Shown here: one piece after another, positions 717 to 14,408 of the stretch | How positions within the stretch are numbered: position 1 is the first letter of the stretch | How the letters are laid out: each line of letters opens with the position of its first letter | DNA from: a virus | Length of the DNA: 20,318 bases | Strand: one strand, 5' to 3' | Virus genome (UHGV): UHGV-0140021 | The notes under the pieces: model-generated | What the model saw: the letters and a program-made list of their open reading frames with translations, nothing else | The model's database searches: none | What the model was told of the DNA's origin: nothing | Translations under genes and position numbers: made by a program

Positions 717-1316
717 TTACGCGTTAAGAAGAGTCAGCAGGCGCTCACGCGCCATTCGTTGATTAATGGCGTTATGTAGCGCACCACTGTCGCGCGCCTC
801 CTGCCAGGCTTTCATCGATCGGACGCCGGAATCGGCCTCCTGATATGCGGGATAGGTCACCGGACTGACATCAAACAGCCGGGAAAACTTTGATATTTCT
901 CGAATAACTACCCCTTCGTCGTCCTCATACCAGTGCTCACCATCACGGGCGACTCGAAAGGCAAAGGACGACTGGTTAATGTCACCGCGAAGCATCGGAG
1001 CCAGCACCAGGTCGCGAATGGTTTGCGTATCCGGTGCGGTAATGTCGTATCGCAGACCGCGATCATCTACAGACAGTGACAACGTTCCGGCAGCGCTACG
1101 ACCAAGGATAAAATTAGGGTCATGGTTAAACAGCCCGCGAACATCATCATTGAGCACATCGTCAAAAGCACCGGGTTTGATAATTTCACGAAACCCCCAG
1201 AGAGGTTCCGAGCGACTGTTAAACACCGATCCGTAACCCAGAATGCGGGTGGGCTCATCGGTGCGTTGTTCCGCGCGAACCTCCCCGCTATAGCAGCGTG
1301 TTTCACGGTCATTCAT
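717..1316 (-). CDS. Prohead protease, HK97 family (peptidase S78/U35)
   Basis: 199-aa ORF between portal and capsid genes; sequence character and position match HK97 gp4-type prohead proteases. Confidence 0.8.
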   Translation of the reverse strand: MNDRETRCYSGEVRAEQRTDEPTRILGYGSVFNSRSEPLWGFREIIKPGAFDDVLNDDVRGLFNHDPNFILGRSAAGTLSLSVDDRGLRYDITAPDTQTIRDLVLAPMLRGDINQSSFAFRVARDGEHWYEDDEGVVIREISKFSRLFDVSPVTYPAYQEADSGVRSMKAWQEARDSGALHNAINQRMARERLLTLLNA

Positions 1317-2535
1317 TGGTTTTTTCCTCGTCGGTTTTTGGTGCCTTAAAATCGTCTGCCGGGTTAGCCGCGTTCACGCTTACCAGCATTTCATCCAGGC
1401 CGTCTACCGGGTTCATATCTTCAAAGGCTCGCACCTCGTTGCGGCTCATCCAGCCATCGGTAATTGCAAAGTGGTAGAACTGAGCACGCTCCTGCGGGGT
1501 TCCGCGTAGCAGGCCTGTCAGGTTAAACCGGACGTAATACCCTGCCGCCAGCTCCGCACGAGTAAACAGCCGTCGGTTAAGCTCCTGCTCCCAGTTCGTT
1601 ACCCACGGCATGATCGTGTAGCGGACAAACTGAATCGCCTGTTCGGAGATATTGGAGTAGGTGGCTTTTTCGAGATCGTTAATCATGTGTGCCGGTACGT
1701 TGAAAATCCCGGCTATCATTGAGCGATTTAGCTTGGACATGTCAATGATCTGCGCGTCAATTGGCGATACAGTCAATGCCCTGTAATCCAGATCCGCAGG
1801 CAGCAGCATGGTTTTGTTTTCCTGGCTCCGTAGCGCCAGCGCGGCTTTTTGCCAAACCTTTTTGAGCCGTTCCCATCCTTCGCTTTTAATTTCCCCCTTC
1901 ACCGTGACGATGCCAGCAGGCCTTGCATTCCCACTAAAGAAGCTCTCCGTATACTTCTGACCGCTCATGCCCATACCGATTGTTTCAGCATGCTGCATCA
2001 CTGGACTAAGCCCCATTTTCTGGTTATTACCCAGCGCGCGAATGTGAACCATATCGTCAGGGCTGATGGCGAAAGCGCCCTCTTCGTTGTAAACCCCATA
2101 AGTGTAACGCCCACCGGTATTAATCAGGGTCGTTTCCCATGGCATGCAGCAATCCAGTGCAGTTACTTCGCCGCGGAGGTTACGTTTCACCCAGGTGTAC
2201 CCATTCCCCCAGCCGAGGATGTGGCGTTGCTTCAGCTCACGCCATTTGTAACTGGTCTGCCAGGTGTTTGGCTCATCATGAACCAGATAAAACGCAGGGT
2301 GATCCCGTGCGGGTTCAACCTTACCATTGTGCTTACGCATAACATGCAGTGGCATCTGGGCAAGGTTGGAAGACAATACATAGATACAGGCATACACCGC
2401 CGCCAGTTTCATCGCAGTCTCAGGACTGACATAAACATCTGCCCGGAACAACCCATCAGTATCAACAGCATCCCCGGTAATCGGGGTGGAAGGATTTTCC
2501 AGTGACTCACTTCTGAACATAGCATCAAGCAGCAC
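1309..2535 (-). CDS. Portal protein, HK97 family
   Basis: 408-aa ORF downstream of large terminase; GTG start at 2535 preceded by AGGGGG SD; size and position typical of HK97-like portals. Confidence 0.85.
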   Translation of the reverse strand: MLLDAMFRSESLENPSTPITGDAVDTDGLFRADVYVSPETAMKLAAVYACIYVLSSNLAQMPLHVMRKHNGKVEPARDHPAFYLVHDEPNTWQTSYKWRELKQRHILGWGNGYTWVKRNLRGEVTALDCCMPWETTLINTGGRYTYGVYNEEGAFAISPDDMVHIRALGNNQKMGLSPVMQHAETIGMGMSGQKYTESFFSGNARPAGIVTVKGEIKSEGWERLKKVWQKAALALRSQENKTMLLPADLDYRALTVSPIDAQIIDMSKLNRSMIAGIFNVPAHMINDLEKATYSNISEQAIQFVRYTIMPWVTNWEQELNRRLFTRAELAAGYYVRFNLTGLLRGTPQERAQFYHFAITDGWMSRNEVRAFEDMNPVDGLDEMLVSVNAANPADDFKAPKTDEEKTNE

Positions 2536-2686
2536 GCGTCCCCCTTCTGGCTATAGCCAGGGCGCCGACCAGCAGGAGTCCGCCGGAGAACATGAGAGCC
2601 GGGGCCAGACCAAACTGTAGGTAAAACCCAGACGTGAGCAGGCCGAAACCGGCCATACCGATAACATCAGCAATAAGTGATTTCAT
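2525..2686 (-). CDS. Small hydrophobic protein (53 aa), predicted membrane peptide
   Basis: Hand translation gives [53 protein letters not shown]. Its ATG overlaps the TerL stop (ATGA) and its stop overlaps the portal start. Below the 60-aa cutoff of the ORF track. Confidence 0.4.
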
Positions 2687-4416
2687 AGAATTAAGAGATC
2701 ATCGTCCGGATCAAGAGATGAGAGGAAATCGCCAGGCTCTTTAAGCATTGCCCGTCCGATCGCCATTATCAGCGCCACCGCGCCGTCGATTTTATTTTCG
2801 TTCTGCTCCTTGATAGGCTTCACAACATCATCGTTCCCCGGCAGATATTTCCCCACCACGTTGCTGATACACCAGCTCATGATCGGGTTACCGTCGTGAT
2901 GAAAACGCCCAGACTCAATGGCTGCTTCCAGCTCTTTCATTGGGTCTGACATATTGGTGTAGTTCTGAACGATAGTGATCGGATTAAGACTTTCATCAGC
3001 CAGATCATGTGAAAGCCCCGTCGCGCCGAATGGGTCAATCGGAGACTCACTGACCGGGTTGAGTTTGTTTGCTGCTTTGGCCTCTTCAAGGATGTAGCGG
3101 TAATCCACTTCAGCGCCATCAGTAACTGTAAGCAGTTCCATTTCAACCCATTTCTGAAATCGCTCCGCAGTACGACGATCTTCATTCTTTTCAACGCTGA
3201 ATACTGTGTCGTAAGGAACCCAGAAGCGGGGAGCAACGCTGTAGTAATGTGTCTTGCCGTCAATTTCTCTGGTGAACAACCGCGCCATACTGTTCATATC
3301 CAGCTTGCGCGCCAGGTCGAAAGACAGAACACATGGCTGTCCTTCGAATTGCTCCAGCGTCAGTGTCTTATCCTCGCAGTTCTGCCAGGAAACCAGGTTG
3401 TAGAAAGCGGCACGGGCTGCAACCCAGATATTGAGGTGTTTGGTTTTAAATACGCCAGCCTGGCGAGCATTATTGATAGCACGCTGTTGCTGGCTTAACA
3501 GAAAGTCACGGTAAACCGAGACACCCATATTCGGGTTGGCCTTCTCAAGCACTTTAGGATCGGTCCAGTCATCCCCCTCGTCGACGGTATATATCACGCC
3601 GAACAATTCCTCATTCGGTACCGTGCCGTTAAGCATCTCAATCACTTCACGCCGTTTGTCGTAGCATGGACCCTCAATGTTGTAACCTGCTGTGGTGATC
3701 GCCCACATCAGCGGTTGTCGCCGCGCCCCCATACCCGTCAGCATTGTGGTGTAGAGCGAATCTGTTGGGTGTTCGTGATACTCGTCAACAATCGCACAGT
3801 GCGGTGAAGCGCCGTCCCCAGGGTTACCAATCAGCGGCTCAAAACGCGCGCCATCTTCTGGCCGGTTCAGGTTGGACGCATTAACTTCAATCCCGAACGC
3901 GTCCACCAGCATCGGGGTGCGCTTACACATCAGACGAGCTGGTCTGAATACTTCCCACGCCTGTTTTTCAGTTGTGGCCCCGGAATATACTTCAGCGCCA
4001 AACTCGTTATCACAGGTAAAACAGTACAGCGCCACACCCGCCGAAATGGCCGATTTCCCGTTTTTACGCGGTATCTCCGTGTAAACCTCGCGAAATCGTC
4101 GAAGCTTCGACCCTTTCTGGACCCAGCCAAAGGCGCAGCACACAATAAACAGTTGCCATGCCTCCAGAGTGATCGGCATCCGCTTGAATGCCCACTCTCC
4201 TTTTGTATGTGGCAACAACTGGATAAATTTCGCGGCCTTTTCTGCCATGTCTTTATCGAAGCGGTAACGAAATTTCTTACTCTTTTCAGCCGCCATGTCA
4301 TCGATATGACGCTGGCAGGCCTGAATAACAAACTGGCACGCCGGAATTTTCCCCCGCACAACGTTGCGGGCGTATTGATTCGCGGCGTTTACGTTGGGGT
4401 ACGATTTCCGGCTCAT
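2683..4416 (-). CDS. Terminase large subunit
   Basis: 577-aa ORF, ATG overlapping the TerS stop (ATGA); size and gene order (TerS-TerL-portal) diagnostic. Confidence 0.9.
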
Positions 4417-5036: not shown

Positions 5037-5387
5037 TCATTTGAGCCGTTCACGCGCAGTCTTCGCTGCGTGACACGACCAACACAGGCTTTCAAGGTTG
5101 CTGTCTTCATCAGTGCCGCCGTGGGCCTTCGCTTTGATATGGTCCACGCAGGACGCCTGCTTCACTACTCCCTGCCGAAGATGGTTCTGACACAGCCCTT
5201 TGTCGCGCTTAAGTATCCGCTCCCGTATGACTTCCCACTTTGTTCCGTATCCACGCTGCTGCCGTGATTGACCTGGCTTATAGGACTTCCAGCCTTCACC
5301 TTTGTGATTTTCACAGTAGCCAGACGGGTCTGTTGTGGTGTTCCGACAGCCGCGAACGCGACAAGCCTTCGGTGTGCGCGGTGGCAT
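5037..5387 (-). CDS. HNH endonuclease (terminase-associated)
   Basis: Cys/His-rich protein (CRVRGC...CENH...CQNH...CVDH...HGG...N...CWSCH) with an HNH motif; ATG at 5387 with GGGGAG SD; location immediately upstream of the terminase genes. Confidence 0.85.
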   Translation of the reverse strand: MPPRTPKACRVRGCRNTTTDPSGYCENHKGEGWKSYKPGQSRQQRGYGTKWEVIRERILKRDKGLCQNHLRQGVVKQASCVDHIKAKAHGGTDEDSNLESLCWSCHAAKTARERLK

Positions 5388-5452
5388 ATTCACTCCCCAA
5401 AAAAACGCATAGCATTATCGCAGGCACTCAGTGAATGCCTGCTGTAATGCCG

Positions 5453-5679: not shown

Positions 5680-5934
5680 CTATTGCGAGGCTCGTGATTG
5701 CTCAATCGTTCGAATGTCTGCTTTATCCCTGTTACACATCCCCAACGCCCCCAGTAGGCTCACATTCAGATCAAGACTGGCCCCATAGGTCAGCGGGTCT
5801 GGAATATATGGCTGCGGGGTTTCAGCGGTCAGATTGGACGGAACTGGTTGCTGCGGCACTGGTACGTACACCGTCCGCGTATTGCCGCAGCCGGTCAGCA
5901 GCTGCAGCAGGAACAGGCCGGCGAGAGCAATCAT
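5680..5934 (-). CDS. Rz1-like o-spanin (outer-membrane lipoprotein), overlapping the 3' end of Rz in another frame
   Basis: Signal peptide with lipobox (LLQLLTGC) then a proline-rich segment (VPVPQQPVPSNLTAETPQPYIPDP). Starts inside the Rz gene; start taken at the internal Met (5934). Confidence 0.65.
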   Translation of the reverse strand: MIALAGLFLLQLLTGCGNTRTVYVPVPQQPVPSNLTAETPQPYIPDPLTYGASLDLNVSLLGALGMCNRDKADIRTIEQSRASQ

Positions 5935-6223
5935 CACCCGCAACAGCCACTTTGATATCTTCCTGAGTTCTCTGTGACTCCAGTGCGATCTGGTTTTTTG
6001 CATGCTGGTTAGCTCCCAGAATCATATTGGTGATGGCAACGGTTTTCAGTACGTTATCCATTACAGCGCGGTTGCTGTCGTTCGCATCCTGTAGCGTGTT
6101 CAGGCTGGCACTGATGCGAGTATTTTCATTCCAGAGCCAGGAGAAGATAACCAGCGCAACGATAGTCAGCCACCAGCGCCAATGCGCTTTAAACAAACCA
6201 AAGAGAGTGATAAGCGCCATCAT
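5822..6223 (-). CDS. Rz-like i-spanin
   Basis: 133 aa with N-terminal transmembrane segment (LTIVALVIFSWLW) and a charged helical periplasmic domain; ATG overlaps the endolysin stop (ATGA). Confidence 0.7.
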   Translation of the reverse strand: MMALITLFGLFKAHWRWWLTIVALVIFSWLWNENTRISASLNTLQDANDSNRAVMDNVLKTVAITNMILGANQHAKNQIALESQRTQEDIKVAVAGDDCSRRPVPAAAADRLRQYADGVRTSAAATSSVQSDR

Positions 6224-6834
6224 GACAGCTCCGCCAGCGACCGGCTGTAACGCACCTTACGGTCAGTCAGTCCATTCTGGCCACCATTGATGATCTGCGT
6301 GACACGCACGATGTCGCCCGAATAAAGCAGACAACCACGCATGGTGAAGTACCACGCCGCCGAACGAGCCGCATGTCGCTCTTGCGTCAGAAGTTCTGGC
6401 GTACTGACAAGGTCAAGCTTCAGCGCCGAACCGCATTTGGTGTAGTTCTCGCGGCCGGTGATTTGAAGCAGGCCACGACCGCGATATTTCCAGCCGTCAC
6501 CCTGGCTGTTATTCCCCATACGGTCACCGTAAACCAGATTGGCTATTTGTGGCTGGTGAGCGACCTGTTTACCATCGACACGCCCCAGTATTTCGCACTG
6601 GTACGGCGTCAAGCGCTTACCAAAGGTTTTCTTCAGCCCGTCTACCGAGTAGTTGAAGCTCTCGACCAGCGAGGTAAAACCAGCAGATTCATGCCCAACT
6701 TGTGCAATGAACATGGCCTGATCGTTAACTGCTGTAATTCCAAACTCTTTCATTGCCGCATCAATGTGCAGAAACCAGCGTGCAGAAAGCCCGGCGCTGA
6801 TACCAGCCGCCTGCTGAAATTGTTGTTGGTTCAT
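6220..6834 (-). CDS. Endolysin, glycoside hydrolase family 19 (chitinase-like)
   Basis: 204-aa ORF directly after the holin; AQVGHESAGF...LVESFNYS...GRGLLQITGRENY motifs typical of GH19 endolysins. Confidence 0.85.
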   Translation of the reverse strand: MNQQQFQQAAGISAGLSARWFLHIDAAMKEFGITAVNDQAMFIAQVGHESAGFTSLVESFNYSVDGLKKTFGKRLTPYQCEILGRVDGKQVAHQPQIANLVYGDRMGNNSQGDGWKYRGRGLLQITGRENYTKCGSALKLDLVSTPELLTQERHAARSAAWYFTMRGCLLYSGDIVRVTQIINGGQNGLTDRKVRYSRSLAELS

Positions 6835-6843
6835 GGGGATCCC

Positions 6844-7179
6844 TTACTTGGCGTCGCCACCAAAGCGAACGTTGAAAACACGCGTGGCCATTGAGCGCAC
6901 CTGCTCAACGCCAACGAAACCCAGCGCGCCACCGATAGCGATGGAAAGAGACTGTGGAAGGTTGAAATACTCGAGTGCGGAAACAGCCGTCAGCGTCATG
7001 GCGCCACACATCAACCCTTCCAGCACCATCTTTTTCCAGCCACCGCCGACATACGCAATTCGCAGTACAGCCATCGCTACCGATAAAAGGACGGCACCCA
7101 TTGGCGTATCACCGCGCCACCAGCTATGAAGTAACTCAATTAACTCCGTCCAGGAGTGAGGGTCGTTGTGCATTTTCAT
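6844..7179 (-). CDS. Holin (possible holin/antiholin dual start, MKM...)
   Basis: 111-aa protein with hydrophobic transmembrane segments, first gene of the lysis cassette, GGAGGTGA SD upstream. The N-terminus Met-Lys-Met resembles the lambda S dual-start arrangement. Confidence 0.75.
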   Translation of the reverse strand: MKMHNDPHSWTELIELLHSWWRGDTPMGAVLLSVAMAVLRIAYVGGGWKKMVLEGLMCGAMTLTAVSALEYFNLPQSLSIAIGGALGFVGVEQVRSMATRVFNVRFGGDAK

Positions 7180-7849: not shown

Positions 7850-8680
7850 TTACGCGATATTTATCACATCTTCACTTTTAGTCACCCGATTCAGTTGAGA
7901 GCTTGAATAACTCTCCTCCTGGAAACATTTGGTCACCAGGCTTTCATAGAATGGTTTCCAGCTATAACGCCACGTTCGGTCAGGCAGACTCGGCAACTCA
8001 GAAAAAACACCTCGATAGGCAACCGATGATTTTGGCCTGCTGTATCCCCGACCTTCACAGCGCTTACATTCTTTGTAAACCGGTACGCCCTGCAGTTCTG
8101 TCGCTTTACGGTCAATAGTCTTACCTGTGCCGCCGCACTGGCATCGCTTACTTAACTTTCCTGTGCCATGGCAGCGGGAACATAACGTATGATCAGTGTC
8201 AGTTACATCGCGCTTAACCTCAAAGTCAGATGGTGACTGTCTCAGGTCTTTTGCCCATTGTGGCAATCGCATTGTGTAATGACTTTTAGTCACGGTTTTA
8301 GTAGTTGTAAGCAACCCTTTACCACTACATTTTGGGCATGCCACGCTATCAGCGGCTGATGAGGAATAATCGTTATAGGCAAACCGGGCAAGAATACGCA
8401 TGCAGAGGGGAAACTTTTTCCCTGACGCTTTACGAATGGCCATGGGCGCATGCTCTTTCGCGTACTCCGTTAGCCAAGCTATTGACGCCTCCCTGTCCTG
8501 GCTGCTGATACCAGCTTTGCCCAGAAACATTGCCAGGCCTATCCCCGCATCGGCCTGAGTCATCCCCAGTGCAGCCATTACATCAGTAACCGTCAGTTGT
8601 TCACTGGCTGTCGCTCTGCTGGTATCTGATATGTGCATACCTTTCGGCGCAAAAAATTTCAGTACATTATCCAGGTTCAT
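7850..8680 (-). CDS. Antitermination protein Q-like
   Basis: 276-aa protein with several CxxC zinc-binding pairs (CPKC, CSRC, CQC, CKRC); last gene before the late promoter/terminator and lysis cassette; N-terminus resembles enterobacterial prophage Q proteins (from memory, not searched). Confidence 0.65.
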   Translation of the reverse strand: MNLDNVLKFFAPKGMHISDTSRATASEQLTVTDVMAALGMTQADAGIGLAMFLGKAGISSQDREASIAWLTEYAKEHAPMAIRKASGKKFPLCMRILARFAYNDYSSSAADSVACPKCSGKGLLTTTKTVTKSHYTMRLPQWAKDLRQSPSDFEVKRDVTDTDHTLCSRCHGTGKLSKRCQCGGTGKTIDRKATELQGVPVYKECKRCEGRGYSRPKSSVAYRGVFSELPSLPDRTWRYSWKPFYESLVTKCFQEESYSSSQLNRVTKSEDVINIA

Positions 8681-8695
8681 ACGGTCTCCATACGT

Positions 8696-9724
8696 TTAAG
8701 CTTTCGCAATTACGCCGATCGCCAGCGCCCGATCCATAAAACGCAGTAGCAGCTCAAGCTGCGTACCATGCTTCTGCTCGAATGCTGGTACATCGGCGTG
8801 TAACTCGTCGTGGCACTCTCTGCACAGAGGGATCACGAAGAGGTCATGGGCTTTTGTTGCTGTACCACCCATACCGTGCCCTACGATATGGTGCGGATCA
8901 TCTGCTGGCCGTCGGCAACACTCACAGGGTTGTGTTTTAACCCAGCGGGTGTACGTCTCATTTACCCAGCGGCGTCGCTTTGGCCTGAGCATGAAAGACT
9001 CTGGCGACTCCGGATCAACAGAGAGCGTTAGGATCTTCTTCGCCTTCTCCTGCACGAGGCTGGTTGCAGACGCGGAAGGCACAATGTCGCTTTCCCTCAT
9101 GACCGAGCGGATCTTCTCATCCGGAAGGCGTAGCCCCTTGTGCGCAACGCTTTCCGGAATAACATCAGCCAGGTCGTTTCTAACCATCCACCAGCACAGT
9201 TCCGGAAGCGTCAGGATATGCGACTCGGGAAAACCAGAATCACGCCGAATGACTTCCAGAATCCAGGATACCAGGTTTCCGGCCGCTATACCTGCAAGCT
9301 GTTCGGTATGCTGCCCCGACAAAGTGTGATCGCAATGCCAGCACAGGCGAATGCTTCCTGGTGGGTGCCGCATTGTTGTGAAGTTCTTGTCGTGCCACGT
9401 TGAATGTGGCCACTGGCATACAAACCGATTACTCAACCATTGCTCAAGGGAAGAAATCCCACCGGCACGCTGAATAACCCTCTCATTCTCGAAGACCTGA
9501 CGCATTACCGGATCATCAGCCAGCGGCTGAATGGCTGCCGGAACAGCCCCGGTACTGAATGACGCCATTTCTTCTGGTTCAGGCTCGAGCAGAACGCGAC
9601 CACGCATGAAGAGGTGCATCAGTTCCGCACCGGGACGGAACAGCACAATCCCCATACGATGGGCGATCTCGGGGGTAAGCAGAGCTCTCACGCGACCTGC
9701 CCCCTGGCAATGTGTTCTGCCCAC
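8696..9724 (-). CDS. DUF968-family protein (YdfU-like) with C-terminal HNH-type zinc-finger motif
   Basis: 342-aa ORF with GTG start; C-terminus CECCRRPADDPHHIVGHG...LCRECHDELH is HNH-like. Start overlaps the antirepressor 3' end, so the true start may be further downstream. Confidence 0.55.
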   Translation of the reverse strand: MGRTHCQGAGRVRALLTPEIAHRMGIVLFRPGAELMHLFMRGRVLLEPEPEEMASFSTGAVPAAIQPLADDPVMRQVFENERVIQRAGGISSLEQWLSNRFVCQWPHSTWHDKNFTTMRHPPGSIRLCWHCDHTLSGQHTEQLAGIAAGNLVSWILEVIRRDSGFPESHILTLPELCWWMVRNDLADVIPESVAHKGLRLPDEKIRSVMRESDIVPSASATSLVQEKAKKILTLSVDPESPESFMLRPKRRRWVNETYTRWVKTQPCECCRRPADDPHHIVGHGMGGTATKAHDLFVIPLCRECHDELHADVPAFEQKHGTQLELLLRFMDRALAIGVIAKA

Positions 9725-12702: not shown

Positions 12703-13576
12703 GGGTTACCCCCTGCATGCTGCCAACAAGACCACGCGCAATTGTAATAATTTCGCTGGTGGCCGTTCGTTCCAGCCAGAGTTGATTGATGTTGGCTTTC
12801 AGCTTGTTCTGCTGAGCCTCACTCAATACGTCAACGCCTTCCACCTGGTTAAACACCAGACCAACCTCTAGAGGCCAGATACGTGACTCAGTTTCCGATG
12901 GTATTACTGGTTCCTGGGCTGTCCGCACTGCAATTGTTTGCTCTTTACCAACAGCGAATTGAGCCAGCGCCATAAATTCCCGACCTTTTGCCTCCAGTTC
13001 TGTGCGGTTGATATAGCTGAACCGCTCACCACGCCACGACTTATCGAATACAGCTATGGCACCGGCAAAAAACGCGCTGGTGGGTTTCTGTTTTTCGTCA
13101 GCAGGTACAAACCACACAGGCAGATCGAACCCAATGCGCCCGCGAATGAATACAATGTGATCGGCATCTTCCGGCCACCACGTTTCACTCGGCGCGGCTT
13201 TTATCAGGAATACATAGCGACCGCCCTTCTCGCGCTGGGCTGCTGCGTATTTCATGATGTGCGTCATACCAGTGATCGCCTGTTTCTCGTGGTACTGCGA
13301 ACGGCTATACGGTGGGTTGCCATAGCCAGCGCCACCCAGTTCTGCCAGACGTTCAGACCAGTCCTGCGTCAGCGCGTTATCTTCGGCGGTGTACCATGCC
13401 GGGCATTTCGCGTTGTCGGCGTCAGCAAACAAGTCCAGAACTAATGGACCAAATAGCGCGTTGATCCCCCAAAAAAGCAGATCCGGTGTTCGCCACTGAT
13501 CGCCAACTTCTTTCAATTCGTGGGCTGGTTGGCTACGTAGTTCCGCCAGCGACTGGCAATATTTGTTTAACGTCAT
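12695..13576 (-). CDS. Phage N6-adenine DNA methyltransferase (Dam-like family) with ~110-aa C-terminal extension
   Basis: QWRTP...DLFADADNAKCPAWYT...GNPPYS motifs typical of phage Dam-family N6-adenine MTases; start overlaps the upstream ORF stop and its stop overlaps the C5-MTase start. Confidence 0.8.
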   Translation of the reverse strand: MTLNKYCQSLAELRSQPAHELKEVGDQWRTPDLLFWGINALFGPLVLDLFADADNAKCPAWYTAEDNALTQDWSERLAELGGAGYGNPPYSRSQYHEKQAITGMTHIMKYAAAQREKGGRYVFLIKAAPSETWWPEDADHIVFIRGRIGFDLPVWFVPADEKQKPTSAFFAGAIAVFDKSWRGERFSYINRTELEAKGREFMALAQFAVGKEQTIAVRTAQEPVIPSETESRIWPLEVGLVFNQVEGVDVLSEAQQNKLKANINQLWLERTATSEIITIARGLVGSMQGVTHA

Positions 13577-13935
13577 CCTCTGAACCCCTCTGGAATCGTT
13601 GTATCAACCGGACCAAAAGCCATCACATCGCGCTTTTTCGCACCCCAGTCAGCGCGTTTAGGCCGTCCCTTCTGCTCCCAGCGGGTAGCGCTTTGCAGAT
13701 AGCTCTCGAATTTCTTCGGGCCGAACAGCGTTTCCGGGCGCATGTACTGGTACTGCTCGTCGTTCTCGTGCCAGTGCTCATGCTTCAGGTCGATAACCAG
13801 TTGCAGGTCTGCAACGCTGTATCCCTCACGCAGTCGGGCACGGATGTTCTCCAGGGATGTTTTTGATTTCTGATACCGGGATCCGCTGATCTTGTTCAAA
13901 TGGGTCAGAACCAAAATTGCCTGATCAGTAATCAC
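13573..13935 (-). CDS. C-terminal portion of an O-like replication protein (conserved phage C-terminus, RPETLF...KFE.YL motif); possibly a fragment of a disrupted gene
   Basis: 120-aa ORF from a GTG with no recognisable SD; its frame is open upstream to 14016 and so almost abuts the stop of the O-like N-terminal ORF (14007). Confidence 0.5.
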   Translation of the reverse strand: MITDQAILVLTHLNKISGSRYQKSKTSLENIRARLREGYSVADLQLVIDLKHEHWHENDEQYQYMRPETLFGPKKFESYLQSATRWEQKGRPKRADWGAKKRDVMAFGPVDTTIPEGFRG

Positions 13936-14006
13936 GACTTCAGGGTCTGGTTGCGCCGCAACCGGACAAGAGGGTTTTGAAGTTACTTGTGGATCTTGTT
14001 TTGATT

Positions 14007-14408
14007 TTACTGACGGTCAAAACCGCCGTTTTTGACGGATTTCGACGGGTCAGTTTTTGAGGCGTCAAATTTTGATGCGTCAGATTTTGACGTGTCAGAA
14101 TCTGACAGTTGAGAAAATGCGGCAGCCTGAAGTTTCGCCACATTCAGGCGGTACACGTTCGAAGCATTACGGTTACCATTACGGCGCTGTGTACGCGTGA
14201 GCCAGCCATCTTTTTCAAGCTTAGCGATTGCCGTTCTGATAGTGCTCGGCCCTGCGCCAAGCTGGCGAGCAATAGTTTCAATGGACGGCCAGCACACGCC
14301 CTCATCGCTGCTGAAATCAGCGAGGCGGGCCATGATCGCGACACTAGACAACTTCATGCCCGACGCCGCGCAACCATCCCATACGTAGCCGGTTAATTTA
14401 GTGCTCAT
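14007..14408 (-). CDS. Replication initiator O-like protein, N-terminal HTH DNA-binding part; 3' end encodes the ori iterons
   Basis: N-terminus MSTKLTGYVWDG...CWPSIETIARQLGAGPSTIRTAIAKLEKDGWL is a typical replication-initiator winged-helix; C-terminal repetitive peptide (SDSDTSKSDASKFDASKTDPSK) is coded by the 15-bp iterons; SD GGGAGA upstream. Confidence 0.65.
   Translation of the reverse strand: MSTKLTGYVWDGCAASGMKLSSVAIMARLADFSSDEGVCWPSIETIARQLGAGPSTIRTAIAKLEKDGWLTRTQRRNGNRNASNVYRLNVAKLQAAAFSQLSDSDTSKSDASKFDASKTDPSKSVKNGGFDRQ
14025..14114. repeat. Replication origin iterons (about five 15-bp direct repeats, TTTTGAnGCGTCAnn) embedded in the O-like gene, with an adjacent AT-rich stretch (13975-14010)
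   Basis: TTTTGA-type hexamers recur at 14030, 14040, 14055, 14070, 14085 and 14100 (15-bp period for the last five); each unit carries TGAnnnnTCA inverted symmetry. Same layout as ori-lambda inside gene O. Confidence 0.65.

Follow-up and report, generated by a model that had tools for sequence, protein, structure and literature searches.

The question raised by virus genome UHGV-0140021 (20,318 nt; the whole stretch analyzed here, termed the window) is what is encoded between its genes for the large terminase subunit (TerL) and the portal, and what a membrane peptide would do inside a head-morphogenesis operon. The first-pass annotation had described at 2525–2686 an unannotated open reading frame (ORF) packed tightly against both genes, and had suggested that it could encode a small exclusion or lysis-modulating protein or be a frame artefact. 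Here, the 53-codon ORF is concluded to be almost certainly a real gene, and its product is very probably a membrane hairpin according to structure prediction.

The ORF begins with an ATG and runs from 2686 to 2525 on the minus strand, which had been left unstated in the first-pass annotation; it ends with the TGA at 2527–2525. The features of the locus are as follows.

2525–2686, minus strand: gene for a predicted small two-helix membrane protein, 53 codons (ORF and translation; phrog_7105 match; intact relatives; ratio of nonsynonymous to synonymous substitution, dN/dS)

2683–2686, minus strand: ATGA overlap, in which the small-gene ATG (2686–2684) shares bases with the TerL stop codon TGA (2685–2683) (sequence; ATGA in 83 of 83 loci)

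2612–2677, minus strand: predicted helix 1, residues 4–25, with conserved D7, G10, G13, G20, and Y22-L23 and marginal hydrophobicity (AlphaFold2; conservation; Kyte–Doolittle value of 1.5)

2549–2608, minus strand: predicted core of helix 2, residues 27–46, strongly hydrophobic, with the invariant G35 (AlphaFold2 helix 27–52; Kyte–Doolittle value of 2.1–2.2)

2528–2548, minus strand: basic C-terminal tail RRGTRAA, whose codons hold the Shine–Dalgarno (SD) sequence and the GTG of the portal gene (sequence; relatives)

2683–4416, minus strand: TerL, 577 residues, the upstream coupled neighbor (phrog_9, E = 1e-191; PF03354 and PF20441)

1309–2535, minus strand: HK97-type portal, 408 residues, GTG start, the downstream coupled neighbor (phrog_12, E = 2e-127; PF04860, E = 9e-99)

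The tight packing is borne out at both ends. In addition to the ATGA shared with the TerL stop, the GTG start of the portal gene (2535–2533) overlaps the small ORF by 11 nt, and the portal SD sequence, AGAAGGGGGA (2548–2539), lies within the final codons of the ORF. A P27-type small terminase gene (TerS) is located ahead of TerL, and an S78 prohead protease gene comes after the portal. The start of the 408-residue portal in the window is the one called by PGAP in Escherichia coli, and the codon at this conserved position is GTG or ATG across the relatives. Two alternative starts were rejected. M11 of the small gene corresponds to Leu in the relatives, and a downstream ATG of the portal gene is CTG or TTA in most relatives, which keep the GTG (or ATG).

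Comparison with related phages, a check that the first-pass annotation had suggested, showed that the frame is kept in all of them. The 162-nt ORF, with its ATG and ATGA overlap, is intact in 83 of 83 loci, which consist of 80 loci from a pattern scan of IMG/VR, phage SfV, Edwardsiella phage EPP-1, and the window. All 17 loci in GTDB genomes (Atlantibacter, Kluyvera, Citrobacter, Buttiauxella, Mangrovibacter, Kosakonia, Phytobacter, Edwardsiella, Rouxiella, and Symbiopectobacterium) are also intact, with 52–53 codons; the genome-collection scan was made with the closer alignment (A1). Among 30 distinct nucleotide versions, the variable sites at codon positions 1, 2, and 3 number 17, 14, and 39, respectively. 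The dN/dS value (Nei–Gojobori method) is 0.21 in the frame of the small ORF and 0.19 across the codons that are free of overlap. The other frames gave values of 1.0–2.9 in four of five cases and 0.41 in the one antisense frame that shares third positions. In the flanks (150 codons each), the values are 0.07 for TerL and 0.06 for the portal, and these comparisons place the peptide under purifying selection that is approximately 3-fold more relaxed than that on its neighbors. The synonymous divergence (pS) is 0.29 in the small gene versus 0.42–0.45 in the flanks. The chance of a 53-codon open frame in a random sequence is approximately (61/64)^53 = 0.08; openness alone is therefore weak evidence, and it is because of the conservation that the ORF is taken as a real gene. 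An overlapping gene in another frame, on either strand, was rejected because those frames contain stop codons in most or all copies.

The composition agrees with the earlier description of a Gly/Ala/Leu-rich peptide with a basic tail: Leu (10), Ala (9), and Gly (9) account for 28 of the 53 residues, and the C terminus reads ARRGTRAA. With an alignment of 44 sequences as input, AlphaFold2 models the protein as a hairpin of two helices, 4–25 and 27–52, with a mean predicted local distance difference test (pLDDT) score of 89. The best 17-residue Kyte–Doolittle value of helix 1 is 1.55 in the window protein, compared with a family mean of 1.72 and a value of 2.69 in the branch of phage phiP27 L37 (see below). 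Thus, of the two membrane-spanning stretches proposed at first, the second is clearly hydrophobic and membrane-spanning and the hairpin as such is predicted, but helix 1 is only marginal in this protein. The conserved residues are D7, G10, G13, G20, Y22-L23, G26, M32, and G35, and the last of these is invariant in the 44 members, whose identity to the window protein is 35–75%. On helix 1, the glycines share one face, which suggests tight packing of the helices. Given the positive-inside rule, a cytoplasmic RRGTRAA tail implies an N-in/C-in hairpin, and the predicted topology comprises a periplasmic turn of 2–4 residues and a short basic tail in the cytoplasm. A Foldseek search of the PDB and BFVD with the predicted hairpin gave no match at E < 1, which is uninformative because a 53-residue hairpin is too simple. 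A lipoprotein was rejected as a candidate, since Cys19 of the E. coli variants is not conserved and lies outside any lipobox.

The small protein belongs to a catalogued family. Its residues 1–52 match positions 1–52 of the 52-column profile of phrog_7105 (E = 7.2e-22), and a second match was found with phrog_502, annotated as 'membrane protein' (E = 2.6e-4). Among 44 diverse relatives, phrog_7105 was matched by all 44, phrog_502 by 21 (E down to 2e-7), and phrog_4810 by 7. A profile search of 1.84 billion representatives gave 108 clusters at E ≤ 1e-3 (representatives at 50% identity), nearly all of which are 47–60 residues long. The Pfam and PADLOC scans returned no match for the window protein, and NCBIfam returned only a subthreshold match to ComI (E = 0.07).

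Further afield among HK97-type modules, similar hairpins occupy the TerL–portal slot in Vibrio phage K312 (67 residues), Burkholderia phage phiE125 (gp3, 61 residues), and phiP27 (L37, 60 residues; NP_543089, annotated as 'membrane protein'). The PHROG 7105/502/4810 proteins, including L37 and gp3, share with the window protein a size of 50–60 residues, two helices, a short turn, and the slot between TerL and an HK97-type portal; the L37 branch stands apart by a YPPAG turn, a WSW motif, and a helix 1 of far greater hydrophobicity. The family alignment (A2) was compared by hhalign with an alignment of phiP27 L37 homologs, giving a probability of 94.4% and E = 8.7e-8 over 51 columns; transmembrane composition can inflate such profile–profile scores, and the transmembrane controls scored below 0 bits. 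With the A2 profile, K312, L37, and gp3 scored 19–31 bits, versus −2 and −6 bits for the pinholin and AtpE controls. The D7/G10/G13/G20/YL/G26/G35 motif and the hairpin persist at 35–50% identity and in the L37 branch, which has clusters found on approximately 1,000 contigs each in E. coli.

The position of the gene is as characteristic as its product. The order HNH–TerS (P27)–TerL–small gene–portal (PF04860)–S78 protease–major capsid protein recurs in Ralstonia phage Dina, Halomonas phage QHHSV-1, Escherichia phage Evi, and metagenomic contigs; in the contigs compared, the TerL identity to the window is as low as 36%. All SfV-like clade loci examined have the small gene. It is located directly upstream of the HK97-type portal gene in every member whose context was examined (confirmed for the window, Dina, QHHSV-1, Evi, L083–L086, L096–L098, and L101–L104; the flanks are unconfirmed in the short contigs L099 and L100). 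The view that a membrane peptide at this place is unusual was therefore overstated, because PHROG 7105/502 proteins are found at the same slot in many proteobacterial HK97-type head modules, including that of phiP27. Literature searches on phiP27 L37, on SfV, and on small membrane proteins encoded between terminase and portal turned up no publication about the family, and the match to PHROG 7105/502 names the small gene without explaining its function.

In the Evi-like branch of the family, many cluster representatives (P0052, P0055, P0059, P0061, P0063, and P0066) have C termini that are divergent or extended past ...SGCLLLL, and P0050 and P0052 read through into the N-terminal sequence of the portal; this suggests recurrent frameshifts or assembly errors at the junction. 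Symbiopectobacterium purcellii NZ_CP189882.1 contains five copies of the small gene (L124–L128) that encode identical proteins, each an intact 52-codon ORF.

The label 'unannotated' holds for some records and fails for others. An identical (100%) protein is already in NCBI as a hypothetical protein of Citrobacter freundii. The region is present in 262 of 5,426 complete E. coli genomes at 87–88% identity, and PGAP annotates the homolog and the same three-gene order there among the matches listed. In the SfV record (NC_003444.1), an intact 53-codon homolog at 2289–2447 carries no annotation, and the portal (orf3) is called 16 codons longer, with its start inside the small ORF. Klebsiella phage 48ST307 (KY271402.1) has an unannotated L37-like hairpin ORF (VLITILSFIIGLAGAVLISAGAWLILPAAGLITGGSICLIWSYLTARAV...) in a 172-nt gap between TerL and portal (locus ~530–710). 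Both phage records miss the gene and the SfV portal is over-extended, for which corrections are warranted.

How the small gene is expressed can be approached from its junctions. No purine-rich SD sequence is present within 30 nt upstream of its ATG, and on the minus strand the ORF has neither a sigma-70-like promoter nor an intrinsic terminator beside it. Most lineages have a start that overlaps the TerL stop or lies 0–14 nt away from it, with junctions such as ATGA, TAATG, and TGACCATG. Because there is no upstream SD sequence and the start overlaps the TerL stop, the small gene is probably translated by termination–reinitiation coupling to TerL. At the other end, AGAAGGGGGA and the GTG of the portal are near-invariant among 35 unique relatives, and the portal SD sequence sits within Arg/Gly/Lys codons of the tail of the small protein in every lineage, distant ones included. 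One lineage (L084–L086) departs from the arrangement on the TerL side: two extra genes, a terminator-like hairpin, and a 190-nt gap part TerL from the small gene, which still overlaps the portal start by 4 nt. In L086 (Logan SRR27686862, 720–775), the small-gene ATG is immediately adjacent to the terminator-like hairpin, CCGGCGCAAAACC...GGTTTTGCGCCGG with a T-run, and neither an SD sequence nor a nearby upstream stop codon is present.

The small gene is part of the late operon for head and packaging functions in an SfV-like lambdoid prophage of the Citrobacter type. The head block lies downstream of a Q-like antiterminator gene (7850–8680), and a complete holin–endolysin–Rz/Rz1 cassette (5680–7179) lies ahead of it. 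The other features of this part of the window are as follows.

6844–7179: holin/antiholin

6220–6834: endolysin

5680–6223, minus strand: Rz/Rz1

5037–5393, minus strand: HNH gene

The window also encodes a CI repressor, a CII-like protein, an O-like replication protein, methyltransferases, and Ant. The G+C content of the small gene is 0.58–0.60 versus 0.50–0.55 for its neighbors, which is attributable to its Gly/Ala codons. Within the cassette, the Rz-like ORF (6223–5822, minus strand) overlaps the Rz1-like ORF (6003–5680, minus strand), and Rz1 extends well past the Rz stop and is not fully embedded. The small HNH gene is located just upstream of TerS, which is the position of HK97 gp74 and is consistent with HNH-assisted cos cleavage. 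A second HNH-like gene (8696–9724, minus strand; 342 residues, phrog_96) lies between Ant and Q and overlaps Ant by 37 nt. The lambda-O-like initiator is apparently present as two ORFs (13573–14408, minus strand), of which 14408–14007 matches the N-terminal part of the profile and 13935–13573 the C-terminal part. If the split is a frameshift, as it may be, the prophage would seem to be defective.

Here, we propose an explanation for the small gene based on its position, coupling, and predicted structure. Ribosomes terminating on TerL would translate the small gene, and the protein would therefore be made late and in fixed proportion to TerL and the portal. The hairpin would insert in the inner membrane in the N-in/C-in orientation and, as a non-universal accessory, would act at the portal/packaging step. 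We favor this explanation as a whole (a coupled late gene, a membrane hairpin, and a portal/packaging accessory) tentatively, as somewhat less than an even prospect; taken by itself, the role of a membrane-embedded accessory linked to the portal or packaging is possible but doubtful. As an example, the hairpin might serve as an inner-membrane tether or nucleation site for portal or packaging complexes, following the logic of T4 gp40, a viral chaperone required for assembling the membrane-bound gp20 portal initiator (PMC9958956). The gp40–gp20 initiator system is the only known precedent for such tethering or nucleation. The likeness would be confined to this proposed logic, a phage-encoded membrane helper at the portal step, and no relationship to gp40 was detected, as the PHROG and Pfam scans of the window protein return only phrog_7105 and phrog_502. 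T4 gp40 is larger than the small protein, and its gene is not known to lie beside gene 20. Membrane-based assembly is not known for HK97-type proheads.

A number of observations weigh against this explanation. Its main weakness is that only ~12 residues are predicted to face the cytoplasm, leaving little surface for portal binding, and that phages with related portals lack the gene. A hairpin gene is absent at 8 of 12 more distant HK97-type TerL–portal junctions sampled. At the junctions of Serratia Opt-148, Caulobacter TMCBR4, Acinetobacter fLi-Aba02, Xanthomonas L522, and Paenibacillus Wanderer there is no small gene, and in Streptococcus Javan95 and Javan108 and Moraxella Mcat23 an unrelated soluble ORF occupies the slot. 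Because such phages have homologous portals, HK97-type heads have no general need of the small gene, which looks like an accessory: common and positionally fixed, but non-universal. In QHHSV-1 (KX879752.1, locus 3501–3690), a 1-nt deletion (CCC to CC) splits the gene; QHH_52 is annotated as 30 residues, and the rest, in another frame, matches the intact 63-residue relative P0049. This split is either a sequencing error or a sign of dispensability in a plaque-forming phage. The constraint is also roughly 3-fold weaker than on the neighbors, and the conservation of the basic tail may be partly at the nucleotide level because the SD sequence and start of the portal are embedded in its codons.

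The link to the portal in particular was also weighed against the link to TerL. Pairwise nucleotide distances among 67 unique loci indicate that the small gene tracks both neighbors, with a partial r of 0.72 for the 3′ end of TerL versus 0.46 for the 5′ end of the portal gene. These correlations reflect plain linkage and do not discriminate between travel with the portal and travel with TerL. As the fit to the TerL 3′ end is no worse than that to the portal 5′ end, a preferential linkage to the portal depends on one lineage, and L084–L086 are the only direct evidence for a tighter link to the portal than to TerL.

The principal alternatives, lysis or exclusion, are less likely than the portal/packaging accessory. 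In the first, the small protein would be a lysis-timing or permeabilizing protein of the holin, antiholin, or pinholin kind, whose glycine-rich faces oligomerize and depolarize the membrane or modulate the canonical holin, and lysis timing would be tied to the output of the structural genes. The protein resembles class II holins and pinholins such as S21-68 of phage 21 in being small, Gly/Ala-rich, and presumably late, with two predicted transmembrane helices and a basic C-terminal tail; its topology, if N-in/C-in as predicted, would agree as well. Its gene shares the late transcript with the lysis genes, small residues (G10, G13, and G20) line one face of helix 1 with G35 in helix 2, and 2 of the 44 members match Pfam Phage_holin_3_6 (PF07332) very weakly (E ~0.003, below threshold). 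However, the window already has a complete set of holin/antiholin, endolysin, and Rz/Rz1 genes, and the small gene adjoins the portal and never the endolysin in the loci examined. The protein is shorter than pinholins and lacks a dual-start motif, and in the Pfam, NCBIfam, and PHROGs scans no match to a holin family was above threshold. Helix 1, at 1.55, is not like a signal-anchor-release (SAR) helix; the Kyte–Doolittle value of the first transmembrane domain of S21-68 is presumably ~0.5. The lysis-modulator idea of the first-pass annotation is thereby weakened, and we consider it unlikely.

The second alternative, a membrane effector directed at the host or at competitors, is unlikely as well. 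Such a protein could act in late superinfection exclusion, counter membrane-acting abortive-infection systems, or inhibit or modulate an inner-membrane protein of the host. The category 'moron, auxiliary metabolic gene and host takeover' is assigned to PHROG 502 only on account of its 'membrane protein' label. The patchy presence among HK97-type modules suggests an accessory function, the gene evolves faster than its neighbors, and the near absence of a soluble part would imply action within the membrane. Small inner-membrane superinfection-exclusion proteins, the HK97 gp15-type morons, are encoded in the morphogenetic operon of HK97-like temperate phages, and the small gene shares this setting. 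Morons, each with its own promoter and terminator, are expressed from the prophage. In contrast, the small gene has neither, its G+C content is not deviantly low, and the apparent coupling to TerL implies no expression from a repressed prophage. Its fixed position, coupled on both sides across deep divergence, is unlike that of sporadic morons. PADLOC gave no match, and the PHROG scan of the window protein showed no sequence similarity to gp15-type morons. The exclusion idea loses ground, given the lack of an own promoter and terminator and the coupling to late genes.

A third alternative concerns the act of translation rather than the peptide. The short ORF could be a translational-coupling spacer: its translation would pass ribosomes on from TerL to the portal start and fix the portal:TerL ratio, with an incidental peptide. 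Both junctions would suit this role, since the start lacks an SD sequence and overlaps the TerL stop, and the stop overlaps the portal start, whose SD sequence is embedded in the ORF; the low pS of the small gene also hints at nucleotide-level constraint. A mere spacer, however, would not remain hydrophobic. The purifying selection at the amino acid level, seen also in the non-overlapping codons, and the motif and hairpin architecture kept at 35–50% identity and in the L37 branch make it very unlikely. The possibility that the frame is open by chance, or is an artefact of annotation, in a non-coding TerL–portal spacer is practically negligible: the ~8% chance of openness and the SfV record without the ORF would fit it, but all 100 loci examined are intact, substitutions are biased to third positions with a dN/dS of 0.21, and 108 distant family clusters exist.

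A positional analogy remains with lambda W, which lies between A (TerL) and B (portal) and encodes a head-completion protein. Lambda gpW is soluble and binds the portal after packaging, in contrast to the predicted hydrophobic hairpin of the small gene. No gpW family match was found in Pfam for the window protein, and in relatives of the window module the head–tail adaptor genes are annotated downstream of the capsid gene. On the features testable here, the small gene falls outside the holin, gp40, gpW, and moron-exclusion classes.

The sequence and the family (PHROG 7105/502/4810) were already in databases and are functionally uncharacterized. New here are the evidence of selection on the small gene, the linking of the SfV-type proteins to those of the phiP27/phiE125 type, and a placement rule, namely, a position directly upstream of the HK97-type portal gene with the portal ribosome-binding site inside. 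It is conceivable, although quite unlikely, that the family forms a novel class of membrane-embedded portal/packaging co-factors of HK97-type temperate proteobacterial phages, in which a glycine-zipper hairpin would oligomerize in the inner membrane and nucleate or tether the portal dodecamer or the TerL–portal motor. If so, the membrane would be where many 'cytoplasmic' HK97-like heads begin their assembly or packaging, as in T4 with its gp40.

Hundreds of enterobacterial prophages have the small gene, among them phiP27-like and SfV-like elements of pathogenic E. coli and Shigella. Although tailed-phage head and packaging modules count as well understood, a selected and apparently coupled gene for a predicted membrane protein lies between two of their best-studied genes. 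If the protein acts with the portal, membrane-associated head assembly would extend beyond T4; if it is a lysis protein or a host-directed effector, a new small membrane effector would be concealed in the structural operon.

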